Shown here: piece by piece, positions 6,010 to 33,908 of the stretch | Layout of the letters: every line of letters starts with the position of its first letter | How positions within the stretch are numbered: position 1 is the first letter of the stretch | Source: a virus | Taxonomy: Duplodnaviria > Heunggongvirae > Uroviricota > Caudoviricetes | Length of the DNA: 34,976 nucleotides | Strand: one strand, 5' to 3' | IMG/VR virus record: IMGVR_UViG_2548876698_000017 | Made by a program: the position numbers and the translations under genes | The notes under the pieces: generated by a model | Seen by the model: the letters and a program-made list of their open reading frames with translations, nothing else | The model's database searches: none | Told to the model about the DNA's origin: nothing

Positions 6010-6090
6010 AACTTGTTGCCTCGGCCTGTTATCGTTGAGGTAATAATTATGCGTATCTGGTTTGATGTCAATAGATATGAGTTAAAAAAA

Positions 6091-6105
6091 TTACCCATTA
6101 GGTAA
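6091..6105. promoter_or_regulatory. Operator-like palindrome TTACCCATTAGGTAA (perfect TTACC-N5-GGTAA)
   Basis: Between the repressor terminator and the leftward recombination operon, about 80 bp upstream of the first minus-strand ORF (pL-like position). Confidence 0.6.
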
Positions 6106-6112
6106 TCGAATA

Positions 6113-6141
6113 GGCAATAAAAAAGCCGCCTTCTGGCGGCT
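6113..6141 (-). terminator. Intrinsic terminator downstream of the repressor gene
   Basis: Hairpin AGCCGCC-TTCT-GGCGGCT followed on the minus strand by TTTTTATT; 22 bp past the repressor stop. Confidence 0.6.
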
Positions 6142-6162
6142 TACTTACTGAAAAATATGATT

Positions 6163-6747
6163 TTATTGTTTGTTTTTTTCGTTCTGGTTGATGACAAATT
6201 CAATGTAACTTTCGATCTTTGCTTTCTCGGTTTCGGGTAACAATGCGTAGCGCGAGCGATCATAGTTGATGGTCGCAGGGTCGTGCGGGTGAATCAGTAA
6301 TTCATAGCCGTGACGCCCGAATGCGGATGCAACATTCTCCAGGGTGGAAATGGAAACGCTGACCTCATTGTTTAACAGGCGGCTGATTGTCACTTGGGCG
6401 ACGCCGGATGCGCGGTGTAGTTTTCCCTGCGTTGAAAGGTCGCGGCTTTCGCTCATCCAGCGTTCCAGGTTGTGAGCCGCCAGCTGACCTATATCGCTCG
6501 GGCCGACAGGCTGAAAACCCTCCTGAGAAAGCGAGCGATCAATATCAAGCCAGTTACGGGGTTTATTGGCGGCAGCTTCAATTTTTCGTGCAACCTGGTC
6601 GCCGATAACCTTCTTGCCAAGAGCCCAGCGGTTTACCAGATTTGCCTGAGTTCCAAGTTTTTCTGCCATCCGCGTCTGAACACCATTGAATTCACGGTCG
6701 ATCAAGTCGTTGAGATTTTGCCTGCGGACGTCCTGGATACTTTTCAT
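6163..6747 (-). CDS. Putative prophage immunity repressor with two HTH regions and no LexA-like peptidase domain
   Basis: 194-aa ORF divergent from a Cro-like gene with three operator palindromes between them. HTH-like segments MAEKLGTQANLVNRWALGKK and ASGVAQVTISRLLNNEVSVSISTLENVASAF; no S24 peptidase motif seen. Confidence 0.6.
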   Translation of the reverse strand: MKSIQDVRRQNLNDLIDREFNGVQTRMAEKLGTQANLVNRWALGKKVIGDQVARKIEAAANKPRNWLDIDRSLSQEGFQPVGPSDIGQLAAHNLERWMSESRDLSTQGKLHRASGVAQVTISRLLNNEVSVSISTLENVASAFGRHGYELLIHPHDPATINYDRSRYALLPETEKAKIESYIEFVINQNEKNKQ

Positions 6748-6802
6748 TTTCTGGAAAATCGCCTCATATATGAATCAGTAGATGATTCAATTTAAAGCAA
6801 TA

Positions 6803-6817
6803 TTACCCAACAGGTAA
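6803..6817. promoter_or_regulatory. Operator-like palindrome TTACCCAACAGGTAA (perfect)
   Basis: First of three sites in the 154-bp repressor/cro intergenic region. Confidence 0.65.
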
Positions 6818-6819
6818 AT

Positions 6820-6834
6820 GCACCTCATAGGTAA
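6820..6834. promoter_or_regulatory. Operator-like site GCACCTCATAGGTAA (degenerate left half)
   Basis: Second site in the repressor/cro intergenic region, 3 bp from the first. Confidence 0.5.
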
Positions 6835-6850
6835 CTATCCTTGATTTTTG

Positions 6851-6865
6851 TTACCTTATGGGTGA
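6851..6865. promoter_or_regulatory. Operator-like site TTACCTTATGGGTGA (one mismatch in right half)
   Basis: Third site, about 40 bp upstream of the cro-like start; overlaps a candidate -35/-10 (TTGATT ... GAATAT). Confidence 0.55.
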
Positions 6866-6901
6866 ATATTTATTATCTGAAATAAATATCAGGCAATAGC
6901 T

Positions 6902-7132
6902 ATGAGCGATAACGGACATTTCGATTTCAAAAAGCACTGGCTTGCACTTACTCCGGATGAGCGTGAAGCCTTCGCACAGGAAGCCGGAACAACGAGTCAC
7001 TATATCCAGACTCACTTAACAGGTAAGCGCAAAATGCCAGGTAAGGTATTGATGAATGGGCTTTTTAAAGCCTGTAAAACAAGACAATGGCTGCGCTCAA
7101 AAGCAGAACTGGCATACTTCTTCTACTCATGA
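6902..7132 (+). CDS. Cro/YdaS-like small HTH regulator
   Basis: 76-aa ORF divergent from the repressor; HTH-like EAFAQEAGTTSHYIQTHLTGKR; followed by an intrinsic terminator at 7155-7178. Confidence 0.5.
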   Translation: MSDNGHFDFKKHWLALTPDEREAFAQEAGTTSHYIQTHLTGKRKMPGKVLMNGLFKACKTRQWLRSKAELAYFFYS

Positions 7133-7154
7133 TATCCAGCTACAACCCTCTGTA

Positions 7155-7178
7155 GACCGCCACCCGGCGGTCTTTTCA
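7155..7178 (+). terminator. Intrinsic terminator after the cro-like gene
   Basis: GACCGCC-ACCC-GGCGGTC followed by TTTTCA. Confidence 0.6.
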
Positions 7179-7187
7179 TATCTATTC

Positions 7188-7202
7188 GTACCTCAAAGGT
7201 AA
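7188..7202. promoter_or_regulatory. Operator-like site GTACCTCAAAGGTAA (one mismatch)
   Basis: Immediately after the cro terminator, upstream of the small zinc-binding gene and O-like gene. Confidence 0.45.
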
Positions 7203-7282: not shown

Positions 7283-7483
7283 ATGGAAATCATTACACGT
7301 ATTGATGCCGCAAAGCGCGGACTTAAACGCTACTACACCGGAAAACCATGTAAGCATGGACATGACAGTGAACGCTGGGTTTACAACGGACACTGTGTTG
7401 AGTGCACCATGGAATCAAACCGTCGCATCAGGGCAGAGATTAAGCAGATCATGATTAATTCCTCCCCACAACACTCAAGCTGA
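7283..7483 (+). CDS. Small Cys/His-rich (zinc-binding) hypothetical protein
   Basis: Internal ATG at 7283 (MEIITRIDAAKRGLKRYYTGKPCKHGH...NGHCVECT) of listed ORF 7220..7483; C-x-x-x-H ... C-x-x-C motif. Confidence 0.4.
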   Translation: MEIITRIDAAKRGLKRYYTGKPCKHGHDSERWVYNGHCVECTMESNRRIRAEIKQIMINSSPQHSS

Positions 7484-7498
7484 TAGCGGAGATTAATC

Positions 7499-8314
7499 AT
7501 GAGCAGACATGCAACAGATTGGGCCTGGGAGACAGATCCAGGTAGCTCATCATTAAAGCTCATACTGCTCTCGATGGCTGACAGAGCCGATGAATATAAC
7601 CTCTGCTACCCCAGCATAGAACGCCTCGTTAAAGACACTTGCCTGAATAAAAAAACCGTGCAGGCCGGGCTTATATCGCTCATGAAAATGGGGCTTATTT
7701 CAGATACCGGAGAGAGAAAGGGAGCGACGAAAAGAGTGCGGGTTTTCTCTCTTAATATAACCAAAAACGGGAACATTAAAGGCAACCGGGAAGGGGGTAA
7801 TGAACCCGAAAACGGTAATGTTACCGAAAACGGGAATATACCCAAAAACGGGATGTTGAATGATCCCAAAAACGGGATGTTGAATGATCCCAAAAACGGG
7901 ATCCAGAACCAGTCATATAACCAGTCATTTAACCAAGAGAGGGAGAGCAGGACAAAAAGCGGGGATTCTGTGCCTCATGACCCCGGCGCAAACAACGCCG
8001 TGATGAATAACTTTGTTCCTCCTGGTGGGCCAGGGCAATTAGGCAAATTTGTCATGCATGAACAATGGCAACCATCAGATGACTTTCTTCGGAAAAGCTC
8101 ATTGCAGGGGATCTACCTGGACAGTCTGCCAACGGCACAGGAACTTGCAGAGTTCAGAATTTACTGGATGGCTGAGGGTAAGGCATACCATCAGGCGCAG
8201 TGGGAGCAGAAGCTGGCAAGGCGGCTGCAGATTAGCAGACAGAAGCAATCAACATTACCTGATAACAACGTTCCGCACTGGAACAGCCCTGAAGCATGGG
8301 AGGATTTCTTGTGA
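7499..8314 (+). CDS. Replication initiator (lambda O-like role) with N-terminal winged-helix domain; origin iterons inside the gene
   Basis: 271-aa ORF; N-terminal LKLILLSMADRADEYNLCYPSIERLVKDTCLNKKTVQAGLISLMKMGLIS resembles replication-initiator HTH domains. Central KNG-repeat peptide is encoded by six DNA iterons. Stop overlaps the next gene start. Confidence 0.7.
   Translation: MSRHATDWAWETDPGSSSLKLILLSMADRADEYNLCYPSIERLVKDTCLNKKTVQAGLISLMKMGLISDTGERKGATKRVRVFSLNITKNGNIKGNREGGNEPENGNVTENGNIPKNGMLNDPKNGMLNDPKNGIQNQSYNQSFNQERESRTKSGDSVPHDPGANNAVMNNFVPPGGPGQLGKFVMHEQWQPSDDFLRKSSLQGIYLDSLPTAQELAEFRIYWMAEGKAYHQAQWEQKLARRLQISRQKQSTLPDNNVPHWNSPEAWEDFL
7761..7910 (+). repeat. Six iterons, core CC(A/G)AAAACGG(G/T)A, inside the O-like gene (candidate replication origin)
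   Basis: Copies start at 7761, 7806, 7824, 7841, 7865, 7889; the last three are 24-bp units, two of them identical (CCCAAAAACGGGATGTTGAATGAT). Followed by the direct repeat CCAGTCAT(A/T)TAACC. Confidence 0.6.
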
Positions 8315-9133: not shown

Positions 9134-9148
9134 TTACCTGTTAGGTAA
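9134..9148. promoter_or_regulatory. Operator-like palindrome TTACCTGTTAGGTAA (perfect)
   Basis: Intergenic region after the P-like gene, upstream of the DUF1064 gene. Confidence 0.55.
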
Positions 9149-9195
9149 TAAAATATTCTAAAATCTATTGATTTCGTGTCTTACGTGGTTTTTAA

Positions 9196-9210
9196 TTACC
9201 TCAGGGGTAA
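9196..9210. promoter_or_regulatory. Operator-like palindrome TTACCTCAGGGGTAA (perfect)
   Basis: 62 bp from the previous site and 4 bp before the DUF1064 start codon, overlapping its RBS region. Confidence 0.55.
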
Positions 9211-9213
9211 ATC

Positions 9214-9558
9214 ATGAGAAAACAGATACAGGCTCTTGGTCGACTCAAAACAGGCCAGATGAACAAAACAGAATCTGCGTATTGCCAGCACCTTGAGCTG
9301 CGTAAACGTGCAGGAGAAATCGTCTGGTATCGATTTGAGGGTATCAAGCTTCGGTTAGCTGACAACACGTTCTATACGCCCGATTTTGCTGTGATGCTCG
9401 CCACCGGCGAGATGGAACTGCACGAAGTGAAAGGTTTCTGGACCGACGACGCCAGGGTGAAAACCAAAGTCGCCGCAGATCAGTATCCGTTCCGAATCAT
9501 CGGGGTAACGGTTAAACCAAAGAAAGCAGGTGGTGGCTGGAATATCGAAGAGTTCTGA
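9214..9558 (+). CDS. DUF1064-type protein (predicted PD-(D/E)XK-fold nuclease)
   Basis: 114-aa ORF; YTPDFAVMLATGEMELHEVKG gives a PD...E-x-K signature as in DUF1064 proteins near phage replication genes. Two perfect operator palindromes lie just upstream. Confidence 0.55.
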   Translation: MRKQIQALGRLKTGQMNKTESAYCQHLELRKRAGEIVWYRFEGIKLRLADNTFYTPDFAVMLATGEMELHEVKGFWTDDARVKTKVAADQYPFRIIGVTVKPKKAGGGWNIEEF

Positions 9559-13678: not shown

Positions 13679-13723
13679 CATGGTACTATTACCACAACGG
13701 TAACTATTACCACGGTGGTTATG

Positions 13724-16449: not shown

Positions 16450-16526
16450 TGGCGTGGCATGCAGGATTCGAACCTGCGACCAACCGCTTAGAAGGCGGTT
16501 GCTCTGTCCAACTGAGCTAATGCCAC
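16450..16526 (-). tRNA. tRNA-Arg (anticodon UCU, reads AGA)
   Basis: Minus-strand 77 nt: GTGGCATTAGCTCAGTTGGACAGAGCAACCGCCTTCTAAGCGGTTGGTCGCAGGTTCGAATCCTGCATGCCACGCCA. Folds as a cloverleaf with 7-bp acceptor stem, GGTTCGAATCC T-arm, anticodon loop CTTCTAA and encoded 3' CCA. Confidence 0.9.
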
Positions 16527-16848: not shown

Positions 16849-16863
16849 TTACCTGAAAGGTAA
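16849..16863. promoter_or_regulatory. Operator-like palindrome TTACCTGAAAGGTAA (perfect)
   Basis: Noncoding region between the tRNA and the 6.7-like/portal genes, about 90 bp upstream of the first structural ORF. Confidence 0.5.
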
Positions 16864-16953
16864 TAATTTGTGCGTTAAATGTCAACTATCTACGATAAAT
16901 AAATCATATGTGGTTAAATTGGTAATAATTTAATTGCGTACGGAGTCATTGAT

Positions 16954-19859: not shown

Positions 19860-20846
19860 ATGGCTGTTAAAGGCTTAACTGCGCTAACGCTGGCTGACTG
19901 GGGTAAGCGCGTCGATCCAAACGGGAAAGTCGATAAGATTATCGAGCTTCTCGGTCAAACTAACCCGATCCTTCAGGATATGCCTTTTGTCGAAGGGAAC
20001 CTTCCTACCGGACACCGAACCACCATTCGTTCTGGTTTACCTTCAGCTACCTGGCGTTTGCTGAACTATGGCGTACAGCCAAGCAAATCAACCACAGTGC
20101 AGGTAACCGATTCCGTTGGCATGCTGGAAACCTATGCTGAAGTCGATAAGTCACTGGCTGATCTGAACGGCAATACCGCCGAATTCCGCCTGTCTGAAGA
20201 CCGCGCATTTATTGAAGCGATGAATCAGCAGATGGCGCAGACGCTGTTTTATGGTGATTCCAGCGTTAACCCTCAGCAGTTTATGGGACTGTCCTCCCGC
20301 TATTCCAGCCTGTCTGCAGGTAATGCTCAGAACATCATTGATGCTGGTGGCACGGGTACAGATAACACCTCAATCTGGTTAGTGGTGTGGGGCGAAAACA
20401 CAGTGCATGGCATCTTCCCGAAAGGGCAGAAGGCTGGCATTCAGATGGAAGATAAAGGCCAGGTGACACTGGAAGATGCTAATGGCGGCAAGTACGAAGG
20501 CTACCGTACCCATTACAAATGGGACAACGGACTTGCTCTGCGTGACTGGCGTTATGTTGTTCGCATTGCAAACATCGATGTCAGCAATCTTTCAGAACCT
20601 TCCTCTGCCGCAAATATTGCGAAGTTGATGGTTAAAGCACTGCATCGCATTCCAAATCGTGGCATGGGTCGCCCGGTGTTCTACATGAACCGCACTGTAG
20701 GCCAGGCTCTTGATCTGCAATCTCTGGAGAAAACATCTCTGGCGATCAGCGTAAAAGAGACAGAAGGCGAGTGGTGGACTTCATTCCGTGGTGTACCAAT
20801 CCGTGAAACTGATGCGCTTCTGGAAACAGAAGCCCGCGTGGTGTAA
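19860..20846 (+). CDS. Major capsid protein
   Basis: ATG at 19860 (MAVKGLTAL...) with AGAGAGGA RBS; about 330 aa, directly after the scaffold gene and followed by a stem-loop at 20863-20882. Confidence 0.75.
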   Translation: MAVKGLTALTLADWGKRVDPNGKVDKIIELLGQTNPILQDMPFVEGNLPTGHRTTIRSGLPSATWRLLNYGVQPSKSTTVQVTDSVGMLETYAEVDKSLADLNGNTAEFRLSEDRAFIEAMNQQMAQTLFYGDSSVNPQQFMGLSSRYSSLSAGNAQNIIDAGGTGTDNTSIWLVVWGENTVHGIFPKGQKAGIQMEDKGQVTLEDANGGKYEGYRTHYKWDNGLALRDWRYVVRIANIDVSNLSEPSSAANIAKLMVKALHRIPNRGMGRPVFYMNRTVGQALDLQSLEKTSLAISVKETEGEWWTSFRGVPIRETDALLETEARVV

Positions 20847-30457: not shown

Positions 30458-32932
30458 ATGAGACAGGAATGTATACAAGCGGTCCAGCAGGCGGCGCAGC
30501 GCACGTTAACGGCGCGAGAAATACAGAACATTGAAGACCGCATTTATCGAAATATGCGCTCCATTGCTCGTGATGACCCGATGTCGTGGCGACAACTTTC
30601 CGAATCAGAACGGTTGTATCGTGCAGCACAATTGGCATCTGAAGAATTACAGCGAGAAGCGGCATTAAAGAAACGTCGTGTGGCCCTCACTATAGCCGCA
30701 CGTCAGAGATTGGATAAATTTATCAATAGCTATCAAGGGGCTGATGGGAAACTTGGCGCTCTTAACCGTACTATTGCTTTTAATGCAGACGGTAAATCGA
30801 ATTTCCTCTCTGTTGAATCCAGAACAAAAGCCACTCGTGATTATGCATTGAGTCAATTGCAGGAGGCATTTGAAGCAGTTGATCCTCGCTTTTTTGGCCT
30901 GTTTGAAGATGAAGCGGGCGTGCGTGACCTGGTATATGAAATGCGAGGGCAAAATACTGGCAATGCTAAAGCAAGAAAAGGTGCTAAGGCGTGGAGAGAA
31001 GTGACAGATCTACTGCGCCGCCGGTTTAATGATGCTGGTGGGGACATTGGCTATCTCGAAAACTGGGGGATCCCTCAACATCATTCTATGGAAAAGGTTG
31101 GGGCGGTATCAAAAGATAAATGGGTTAGCGATGTTATAGGTAAGCTGGATCGCAAATATTATACCCGAGCCGATGGACAACTGATGAACGATGCCGAGTT
31201 GTCTGCATTTCTTGGAGAGGCTTATAACACGATCGCTACTGGTGGGCTGAATAAGCTTACTGATACCGGAATGCGAATTTCCGGCGTACGTGCTAACCGT
31301 GGTAATGCATCACGACAGATACATTTCAAAGATGCAGATTCCTATCTGCAATATCAGCAACTTTATGGCGATCGCTCTCTATGGGAAATCATGGTCGGTC
31401 ACCTGGAAGGTATCAGTAAAGATATTGCGCTGGTGGAAACATATGGCCCAAACCCCGATCATGTTTTCCGCTCTCTTCTTGATCAGGTTAAGGCAGAAAC
31501 GGCAACAGCTAACCCGAGTAAAACCGGTAGCGTCGAGCGTCTGGCGAACAAAACAGAGAACTTGTACAACTTTATTTCCGGAAAAACACAGCCTGTAGCG
31601 AATCCGCACATCGCGCGATGGTCTGACAATATCCGCAACTGGCTGGTTGCCAGCAGACTCGGATCCGCGTTGCTGTCATCGTTCTCTGATCTTGGAACCA
31701 TGTATCTGTCTGCGAAGGTTACCAACCTTCCAATGAACCAGTTATTTCGCAACCAGCTTGAAGCTATGGACCCAACGAACCGTACTGAGCTTGCGCGGGC
31801 GCGCCGCGCTGGCCTGGCGATGGAATCTCTACTTGGCAGCGTTAACCGCTGGGCGATGGATAATATGGGGCCGTCTGTGTCTCGTTGGGCGGCAACGGCG
31901 GTAATGCGTGCCAGTGGGCTTACAGCATGGTCAGGTGCGCACAAGCGCGCCTATGGCGTAACCATGATGGGAAGCCTGGGAGAAGTAGTGTCACGGACAC
32001 CAGACCTTCGTAGCCTCGATGACTCTGATTTTCGTATCCTGAAAAGTAAAGGGATTACTGACACAGACTGGAGCGTATGGAAGCTGGCGCAACAGGAGGA
32101 CTGGGGGAACGGTAATAATACGATGCTGACACCGGAAAGCATTATGCGTATCCCTGATTCAGCAGTTAAACATCTTGGTGAGCCTGAACGCGTGAAATTT
32201 GAGGCAATGCGTAAACTGCTCGGTGCCGTAACTGAAGAAGTTGATATGGCTGTTATTACACCGGGAGCACGTGAGCAACTGATAACCGGTTCTGGTATTC
32301 AGCGTGGAACATGGAAAGGTGAATTAACGAGAAGTGTTTTCCTGTTTAAATCGTTCCCTATCTCGGTTGTTATGCGTCACTGGTCACGCGCTATGGGTAT
32401 GCCGTCTGCTGGTGGGCGTGCGGCATATATTGCGACGTTTATTGCCAGTACGACCATTCTTGGCGCTTTGTCGCAGCAACTTAACGACCTTGCGTCTGGT
32501 CGTAATCCTCGAGAGATGACAGGAGAAGATGCCGCAAAATTCTGGCTTGGTGCTCTACTGAAAGGTGGTGGTCTTGGCCTTTACGGTGACTTTTTATTGT
32601 CAGATCACACTAGGTACGGAAGCGGCGCGCTGGCGTCGATGCTTGGCCCGGTAGCTGGTCTGGTTGATGACGTAGTGAAGATTGCTCAGGGCATACCGTT
32701 AAATGCTGTGGAAGGGAAGAGTGAGCAGACTGGTGGTGATCTGGTGAAGCTGGGGAAAGGTTTGATGCCTGGTGCGAATCTCTGGTACTTGAAGGCGGCT
32801 CTCGATCACATGATCTTTAACCAGATGCAGGAGTATTTTTCACCAGGCTATTTGCGTAAAATGGAGCAACGTTCGAAGAAAGAGTTTAACCAGACATACT
32901 GGTGGCGACCTCAGGATGTCACTCCGCAATAA
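30458..32932 (+). CDS. Internal virion/ejection protein (large)
   Basis: 824-aa ORF; last of three consecutive large ORFs before the tailspike; assignment by synteny. Confidence 0.5.
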   Translation: MRQECIQAVQQAAQRTLTAREIQNIEDRIYRNMRSIARDDPMSWRQLSESERLYRAAQLASEELQREAALKKRRVALTIAARQRLDKFINSYQGADGKLGALNRTIAFNADGKSNFLSVESRTKATRDYALSQLQEAFEAVDPRFFGLFEDEAGVRDLVYEMRGQNTGNAKARKGAKAWREVTDLLRRRFNDAGGDIGYLENWGIPQHHSMEKVGAVSKDKWVSDVIGKLDRKYYTRADGQLMNDAELSAFLGEAYNTIATGGLNKLTDTGMRISGVRANRGNASRQIHFKDADSYLQYQQLYGDRSLWEIMVGHLEGISKDIALVETYGPNPDHVFRSLLDQVKAETATANPSKTGSVERLANKTENLYNFISGKTQPVANPHIARWSDNIRNWLVASRLGSALLSSFSDLGTMYLSAKVTNLPMNQLFRNQLEAMDPTNRTELARARRAGLAMESLLGSVNRWAMDNMGPSVSRWAATAVMRASGLTAWSGAHKRAYGVTMMGSLGEVVSRTPDLRSLDDSDFRILKSKGITDTDWSVWKLAQQEDWGNGNNTMLTPESIMRIPDSAVKHLGEPERVKFEAMRKLLGAVTEEVDMAVITPGAREQLITGSGIQRGTWKGELTRSVFLFKSFPISVVMRHWSRAMGMPSAGGRAAYIATFIASTTILGALSQQLNDLASGRNPREMTGEDAAKFWLGALLKGGGLGLYGDFLLSDHTRYGSGALASMLGPVAGLVDDVVKIAQGIPLNAVEGKSEQTGGDLVKLGKGLMPGANLWYLKAALDHMIFNQMQEYFSPGYLRKMEQRSKKEFNQTYWWRPQDVTPQ

Positions 32933-33455: not shown

Positions 33456-33713
33456 TTATGTGGTTTGTTTTCGTAATTGTTCGGCACAATAGTCGAGATG
33501 TGTTTGCAGATCCTGCATAGACATCTGTGAGCTGGTGACGTAGTTAATCAGTGCAGTCAGTTCGGCAAGTGGGCCATCGACATTAAATCCATCCTTATCG
33601 AGATCCCGGAGTAATTTCATCAAGTGCGATCCCTCCACCAGTGACCTGACGCCTCCCGGCGTGTGAATCCTTTCGGTAAATCCGTCTTCCAGTGGATAGT
33701 GATACTGCTGCAT
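33456..33713 (-). CDS. LexA-box-associated small protein (candidate SOS-induced antirepressor or other SOS moron)
   Basis: Listed ORF 33456..33731 starts at TTG; I prefer ATG at 33713 (MQQYHYPLEDG...) with GGAGAAG RBS. A near-consensus LexA box lies 22-37 bp upstream of that ATG. Confidence 0.55.
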   Translation of the reverse strand: MQQYHYPLEDGFTERIHTPGGVRSLVEGSHLMKLLRDLDKDGFNVDGPLAELTALINYVTSSQMSMQDLQTHLDYCAEQLRKQTT

Positions 33714-33732: not shown

Positions 33733-33752
33733 AACTGTATAAATATACAGTA
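33733..33752. promoter_or_regulatory. LexA (SOS) box AACTGTATAAATATACAGTA
   Basis: CTGT-N8-ACAG with AT-rich spacer, close to the consensus TACTGTATATATATACAGTA; 22-37 bp upstream of the preferred ATG of the 33456..33713 minus-strand ORF. Confidence 0.8.
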
Positions 33753-33789: not shown

Positions 33790-33804
33790 TCACCTGAAAG
33801 GTAA
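33790..33804. promoter_or_regulatory. Operator-like site TCACCTGAAAGGTAA (one mismatch; ACCTGAAAGGTAATA is shared with the 16849 site)
   Basis: Between the LexA-box gene (minus) and the tailspike gene (plus). Confidence 0.45.
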
Positions 33805-33908
33805 TATCTGTTCGTATTTATGGGTTATATATCCATATGTGGTTTTTCAGGTAATAGAATAACCGGATATGCGGCGCAACGGGTGCTGCGACTATCTGGA
33901 GATTTAAC

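Follow-up and report, generated by a model that had tools for sequence, protein, structure and literature searches.

A phiV10/epsilon15-like prophage with a probable SPC32H-type repressor, predicted to be released by a LexA-controlled antirepressor

The locus considered here lies in a stretch of viral DNA of 34,976 nucleotides (the window), for which sequences, homology, motif statistics, conservation and synteny were computed. It contains the lysogeny repressor gene rep (6163-6747, minus strand; an ATG-started open reading frame of 194 aa), followed by an intrinsic terminator (6123-6142, minus strand) with an 8-bp stem of which 6 pairs are G-C and a T tract; the phiV10 annotation places a terminator at the same position. 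On the other side of rep lies a cro-like gene (6902-7132, plus strand; 76 aa), a homologue of epsilon15 gp39 matching phrog_35 "transcriptional repressor" with E 5.6e-13, with a terminator behind it at 7154-7173. A promoter of rep itself was sought, and no placement was convincing. The gene ant (33456-33713, minus strand; 85 aa) encodes the antirepressor, which matches PDB 5D50_E.

The window shares 97.7% DNA identity with the E. coli O157 phage phiV10 and is 100% identical to prophages of E. coli O26 and other strains; judged by its sequence, it is a phiV10/epsilon15-like prophage of the genus Uetakevirus. A match to the locus occurs in 566 of the 5426 complete E. coli genomes (~10%), O26 and O157 strains included, and the RefSeq name of Rep in E. 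coli is only "helix-turn-helix domain-containing protein". Other features of the prophage include an Rfam match to sRNA-Xcc1 (RF02221; 1981-2070, minus strand; 62.9 bits against a gathering score of 53) in the leftward region near the integrase end, and a DnaT-like/HTH_36 replication protein (7499-8314, plus strand) with low-complexity NG-rich repeats (NGNIKGNREGGNEPENGNVTENGNIPKNGMLNDPKNGMLNDPKNG) between its two domains. A tRNA-Arg gene (anticodon TCT; 16450-16526, minus strand) is found in the ~900 bp of non-coding DNA that separate the terminase operon from the head operon; a tRNA-Arg also occupies the syntenic position in Salmonella phage SPC32H.

The product of rep had been described in the first-pass annotation as a 194-aa immunity repressor, and we believe that this designation is correct. 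The protein is 100% identical to phiV10 gp40, whose record carries the label [quoted passage not shown], and to ORF21 of phage vB_EcoP_ZX5 (ZX5), which blocks lytic growth: when ORF21 was overexpressed, free phage disappeared and the endolysin and holin transcripts fell by more than 99.9% (PMC9782041). PHROGs assigns Rep to transcriptional regulator and repressor families. Residues 1-190 align to residues 2-197 of PDB 5D50_A, the SPC32H "Repressor" (E 4e-42, 43% identity), i.e., Rep is homologous to the crystallised protein over its full length, and its C-terminal half (89-190) matches PDB 5D4Z. The SPC32H Rep/Ant system (PDB 5D50, 5D4Z) was reportedly described by Kim and Ryu in 2013 and by Kim et al. 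in 2016.

The Pfam search with the full protein gave HTH_3 (E 1.2e-9; 38.5 bits, cut-off 23), strongest over residues 106-147, a match that places Rep among the XRE/Cro-C1 HTH proteins by a score above the gathering threshold. A Cro/YdaS-type HTH (PF15943) at residues 21-61 is sub-threshold (21 bits against a cut-off of 30). Peptidase_S24 was not matched in the full protein at any E up to 1, which agrees with the earlier claim that the repressor has no autocleavage domain. The lambda CI/LexA family is defined by a Peptidase_S24 domain at the C-terminus that bears a Ser-Lys dyad, together with a cleavage site; Rep lies outside this family because it has no S24 domain.

The alignment with SPC32H Rep spans all three parts of the protein in the same order. 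By this alignment, the N-terminal HTH of Rep would bind DNA, the HTH_3-like middle part would dimerise, and the C-terminal part would serve tetramerisation and Ant binding. The secondary source PMC9986798 assigns the same functions to the SPC32H domains (DNA binding, dimerisation, and tetramerisation with Ant binding, from the N- to the C-terminus), and PMC9638917, likewise a secondary source, describes SPC32H Rep on DNA as a tetramer, in which the DNA-binding pairs are drawn from different dimers. The two HTH-like regions noted earlier are both present in the sequence, the N-terminal one below threshold; the second, XRE-like one is real as a sequence feature, but by analogy with the solved SPC32H homologue it presumably serves as the dimerisation module. 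With domain boundaries that are approximate, the identity to SPC32H Rep is ~53% in the N-terminal, 33% in the middle and 51% in the C-terminal part. Because the identity to the solved protein is no more than 43% overall and 33% in the middle domain, the oligomeric state of Rep and its contacts with Ant are extrapolated. The phiV10-type and the epsilon15/SPC32H-type Reps have an identical segment, NLVNRW, in the recognition helix of the N-terminal HTH, an agreement that fits the TTACC half-site that these diverged proteins have in common. A single-sequence AlphaFold model of Rep was set aside for its low quality (mean pLDDT 45).

The operator motif is TTACC-N5-GGTAA, and its predicted copies are given below without strand. 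Three of them lie between rep and the cro-like gene, labelled here from the rep side: OR3 (TTACCCAACAGGTAA, 6803-6817), with exact palindrome arms; OR2 (GCACCTCATAGGTAA, 6820-6834), with 2 mismatches and a degenerate left half; and OR1 (TTACCTTATGGGTGA, 6851-6865), with 1 mismatch. Start-to-start, they are 17 and 31 bp apart in the window. Three operator copies with exactly these starts and spacings had been reported in the first-pass annotation, and they exceed chance expectation by far. In the alignment of the window with epsilon15, SPC32H, Tyrion and Klebsiella phage BUCT711 the three sites hold their position, with a spacing of 17 and 30-31 bp. The middle site has the half GCACC in the window and Tyrion, and is exact in epsilon15, SPC32H and BUCT711; the cro-proximal site has one weakened half (TCACC, ACACC or GGTGA) in all five phages. 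A further 2-mismatch site at 7012, inside the cro-like open reading frame, was taken as chance.

Just upstream of the cro-proximal site, the block TTGATTTTT is invariant in the five-phage alignment. From this conservation we infer a putative early-right promoter PR (6842-6870, plus strand), with a -35 element TTGATT at 6842-6847 inside the block and a -10 element at about 6865-6870. With the -35 element at 6842-6847, the operator at 6851 falls in the promoter spacer. A generic promoter scan offered another placement (-35 at 6848-6853, -10 at 6871-6876); it is not conserved in the relatives, and the TTGATT block is preferred for this reason.

The other early promoter, PL, probably lies beyond the rep terminator (6043-6071, minus strand), with a -35 element TTGACA at 6071-6066, a 17-nt spacer and a -10 element AATTAT at 6048-6043; its perfect TTGACA sits within the block GTCAATAG, which is invariant in the multi-phage alignment of the OL region. 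Invariant operator half-sites, too, are seen in the OR and OL alignments. Two predicted operators, labelled OL1 (TTATCGTTGAGGTAA, 6029-6043; 1 mismatch) and OL2 (TTACCCATTAGGTAA, 6091-6105; exact, 62 bp from OL1), are found upstream of the leftward operon. OL1 abuts the -10 element of the putative promoter and covers its start region, and the site at 6091 is 20 bp upstream of the -35 element.

The motif is not confined to the surroundings of rep. In the window, 6 exact sites were found against 0.034 expected from composition; among all offsets of up to 40 bp from a TTACC to a downstream GGTAA, the offset of 10 occurs six times and the sole other one (27) once. When up to 2 mismatches are allowed, the count rises to 32, compared with 9.0 +/- 2.9 in shuffles. 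Sites with no more than 1 mismatch number 11 and all lie outside coding sequence, that at 13707-13721 reaching the first base of the small terminase start codon. Apart from those already described, they are the following. An operator-like site with 1 mismatch (GTACCTCAAAGGTAA, 7188-7202) lies after the cro terminator and before a 66-aa gene at 7283, with counterparts at syntenic places in Tyrion and BUCT711. Two exact sites follow the replication genes: one (9134-9148) lies in the gap separating the lambda-P-like replication gene from the DUF1064 gene and falls between the -35 (9127) and -10 (TAAAAT, 9149-9154) elements of a predicted promoter, and the other (9196-9210), 62 bp from it, ends 3 nt before the ATG of the DUF1064 gene at 9214 and therefore covers the ribosome-binding region. 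A pair of sites 18 bp apart (13689-13721; the site at 13689 exact, that at 13707 with 1 mismatch) lies directly upstream of the small terminase start and overlaps it. An exact site (16849-16863) precedes the head/portal operon, and a site with 1 mismatch (TCACCTGAAAGGTAA, 33790-33804) is found in the intergenic region between the divergent ant and tailspike genes.

Two of these operators (9196-9210 and 13707-13721) end 0-3 nt from the start codons at 9214 and 13721, and lie over the ribosome-binding region rather than over any obvious promoter. Another element, CATATGTGGTT-N5-GGTAATA, occurs exactly twice in the window (16905-16927 and 33834-33856, plus strand; 0.15 expected): one copy precedes the head-operon start by ~50 nt and the other precedes the tailspike ATG, and each follows a Rep-type operator at a distance of 44-56 bp. 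Epsilon15, SPC32H and Tyrion have it at both syntenic places, and it looks like a putative late-promoter element (-10 TAGAAT or TAATAAT) for some factor.

Seen against these 11 sites, the three-site operator between rep and the cro-like gene is the centre of a set that extends over the whole genome. The earlier description of the repressor as served by a three-site operator gave the positions correctly; it is incomplete in that the motif occupies eight further non-coding places and that the left half of the site at 6820 is degenerate. The wide distribution itself is not a new observation, because the epsilon15 RefSeq record already carries dispersed sites, namely, seven features "protein_bind: repressor, lysogeny". 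These features, among them 12-27 (terminase), 2931-2947 (head) and 19895-19911 (ant/tailspike), are syntenic with the OL, terminase, head, ant/tailspike and post-replication sites of the window; a scan of epsilon15 found the same motif at the annotated sites and additionally at its OR. The motif recurs at syntenic positions in SPC32H (18 sites), Tyrion (15) and BUCT711 (13), against ~0.5 expected. In regions that lie outside the window, a one-mismatch operator-like TTACC(C/T)TAAAGGTAT is found just upstream of int (epsilon15 26882, SPC32H 26960, Tyrion 28568), and an operator-like site precedes the lysis cassette (epsilon15 24704, SPC32H 24782, Tyrion 26408).

Some of the spacings are fixed. 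Pairs of operators 62 bp apart start-to-start occur at two loci, OL (6029/6091) and the post-replication region (9134/9196), and epsilon15, SPC32H, Tyrion and BUCT711 have both pairs as well, with a spacing of 62-63 bp; the conservation covers five phages, whose hosts belong to four genera. Pairs 17-18 bp apart are found at OR and before the terminase gene. Considering that 62 bp corresponds to ~six helical turns, it is tempting to conjecture that this spacing would suit one Rep tetramer on two sites. The broader proposal is that one tetramer bridges the fixed-distance pairs, that Rep directly silences nearly all transcription units, and that immunity or cross-induction may extend across genera; we hold it to be possible, albeit somewhat doubtful. 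If the bridging is real, Rep would silence nearly every phage transcription unit directly, late operons included. As to the last part of the proposal, Reps of 43% identity have the same TTACC half-site, the same NLVNRW segment and a near-identical Ant, and hence the members of this group in E. coli, Salmonella, Enterobacter and Klebsiella could be mutually immune and cross-inducible.

The product of ant matches chain E of 5D50, "Anti-repressor protein" (E 1.3e-47), and shares 88% identity with SPC32H Ant; no Pfam family reached threshold for it. The gene adjoins the tailspike gene, as in SPC32H, and a GGAG ribosome-binding site precedes its start. A scan for CTGT-N8-ACAG found one AT-rich exact site, the LexA box aaCTGTATAAATATACAGta (33735-33750; no strand assigned), 22 nt upstream of the ant start codon; it agrees in 18 of 20 positions with TACTGTATATATATACAGTA, the E. 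coli LexA consensus. The LexA box, the Rep-type operator and the ant start codon align in the window, phiV10, epsilon15, SPC32H and BUCT711. Rep and Ant are found in essentially the same 35-37 phage records. The small Ant carries the label "hypothetical protein" in the records of phiV10, ZX5 and most of the related phages. The genome that encodes Rep also encodes its cognate small Ant under a LexA box, as in the SPC32H type. Ant is much better conserved across the genus than Rep (88% against 43% identity to SPC32H), and several E. coli phages give tblastn matches to Ant at 2-3 places in the genome, which suggests additional partial copies or fusions.

The first-pass annotation had reasoned that a repressor unable to cleave itself implies induction by an antirepressor. 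The presence of Ant and of the LexA box in the window shows that this reasoning was right and allows the partner to be named: an 85-aa Ant, 88% identical to that of SPC32H, behind a LexA box. In the SPC32H mechanism, according to PMC9638917, the Rep tetramer is broken up by an Ant tetramer, which binds two Rep dimers; the review PMC7380047, citing Kim and Ryu 2013, states that Ant is made after LexA self-cleavage and that the repressor is inhibited via protein-protein contact.

We consider it very probable that the window is a phiV10/epsilon15-like prophage with an SPC32H-type Rep that does not cleave itself and is released by the LexA-controlled Ant. Repressor activity, tetramer binding, the mode of action of Ant and the LexA control are taken here from the literature, where they are described for homologues or for the identical protein, and the promoter positions and the role of each operator are inferred. 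The proposed course of events would be as follows. The N-terminal HTH of Rep would read palindromes of 15-17 bp, ATTACC-N5-GGTAAT, while its middle XRE-HTH-like domain would dimerise and its short C-terminal domain would form tetramers. In the lysogen, Rep would occupy the operators that overlap or flank the early promoters (OL1 and OL2 at PL, OR1-3 between rep and the cro-like gene) and also the sites before the replication-distal genes, the terminase, the head operon and ant/tailspike, which would keep the prophage silent. Since Rep lacks an S24 protease domain, RecA could not trigger its self-cleavage. Upon DNA damage, LexA would leave the box at 33735-33750 and the 85-aa Ant would be made; Ant would then bind the C-terminal domains of Rep, break the DNA-binding tetramer and free the operators.

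The layout of the region invites a comparison of this mechanism with that of lambda. Rep stands where lambda has cI, flanked by divergent early promoters and with three operators at OR, and this might speak for a repressor of the lambda CI/LexA type that undergoes RecA-stimulated self-cleavage through a cryptic protease domain. We regard such a domain as extremely improbable, given that Peptidase_S24 is not matched at E<=1, that the full length of Rep aligns to SPC32H Rep, so that the C-terminal part corresponds to a dimerisation and tetramerisation module, and that a dedicated, LexA-controlled Ant is encoded in the window. A different candidate for the inducer is suggested by the ZX5 paper, where the protein named as the antirepressor is the Bro-N protein ORF4, whose overexpression lowered the prophage counts and rep transcription (PMC9782041); phiV10 also has such a gene (gp23), beside its small ant. 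Induction by this Bro-N/KilA-type antirepressor in place of the small SPC32H-type Ant appears very unlikely to us. Between the last virion gene, which ends at 32932, and ant, the window has small membrane-protein open reading frames only and no Bro-N gene; ZX5 and phiV10 carry the small Ant as well, annotated as hypothetical; and a conserved LexA box and a crystal structure with a Rep homologue exist for the small Ant only.

The sites themselves could be ascribed to another regulator. In lambdoid phages Cro and CI have operators in common, and several TTACC-N5-GGTAA sites of the window precede late operons, which as a rule need no prophage repressor; both facts agree with a set of sites that serves mainly the Cro-like protein or a late-gene factor, with Rep binding some of them or a different sequence. 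This we find unlikely, if less so than the two possibilities above: the sites are concentrated at the early promoters to either side of rep, the syntenic sites of epsilon15 are labelled as repressor-binding, and both the NLVNRW segment and the half-site are conserved across the diverged Reps, while a sharing of sites with Cro would be compatible with Rep as their main ligand. Release of an SPC32H-type Rep by the small Ant remains the explanation that we prefer.

The system is already known: the repressor, its inability to cleave itself and its antirepressor have been published, both for the identical protein (phiV10, ZX5) and for the solved SPC32H homologue. The discovery value of this report is accordingly small, and its practical use is in annotation; linking rep, ant, the LexA box and the operator set would allow SOS-inducibility to be predicted from sequence in this prophage family.

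Among the known systems, that of SPC32H is similar in its homologous full-length Rep with the same domain order, in its Ant (88% identical), in the position of rep between PL and PR and of ant beside the tailspike gene with a LexA box before it, and in the TTACC-N5-GGTAA operators at syntenic places. It differs in that Rep is just 43% identical and the host here is E. coli; the left half of OR2 is degenerate in the window and Tyrion; and OL comprises two sites in the window but three in SPC32H and epsilon15. In the case of phiV10 gp40 and ZX5 ORF21 the protein is the same, whereas neither their records nor the ZX5 paper connect it with the small Ant or the operator set.

The resemblance to lambda CI, noted in the first-pass annotation as a likeness to lambda OR1-3, is one of layout. 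The repressor gene is divergent from a cro-like gene, with a tripartite operator of three graded sites between them, and a second operator cluster is found at the leftward promoter; the resemblance to the lambda CI/LexA family goes no further than this arrangement. The analogy is incomplete, since Rep, like its homologue, would bind as a tetramer and its sites are dispersed over the genome. Unlike CI, Rep has no S24 autocleavage domain; the SPC32H homologue binds as a tetramer, as opposed to the cooperating dimers of CI; and the spacing is 17 and 31 bp here, with further operators before the late operons. The OR sites of lambda are spaced by 24 and 23 bp.

The pairs of the 186 CI/Tum and Gifsy type, as presented in the review PMC7380047, likewise combine a non-cleavable repressor with a small LexA-repressed antirepressor. 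The likeness to them is one of logic, while the SPC32H Ant acts on the C-terminal domains of its repressor, breaking the tetramer.
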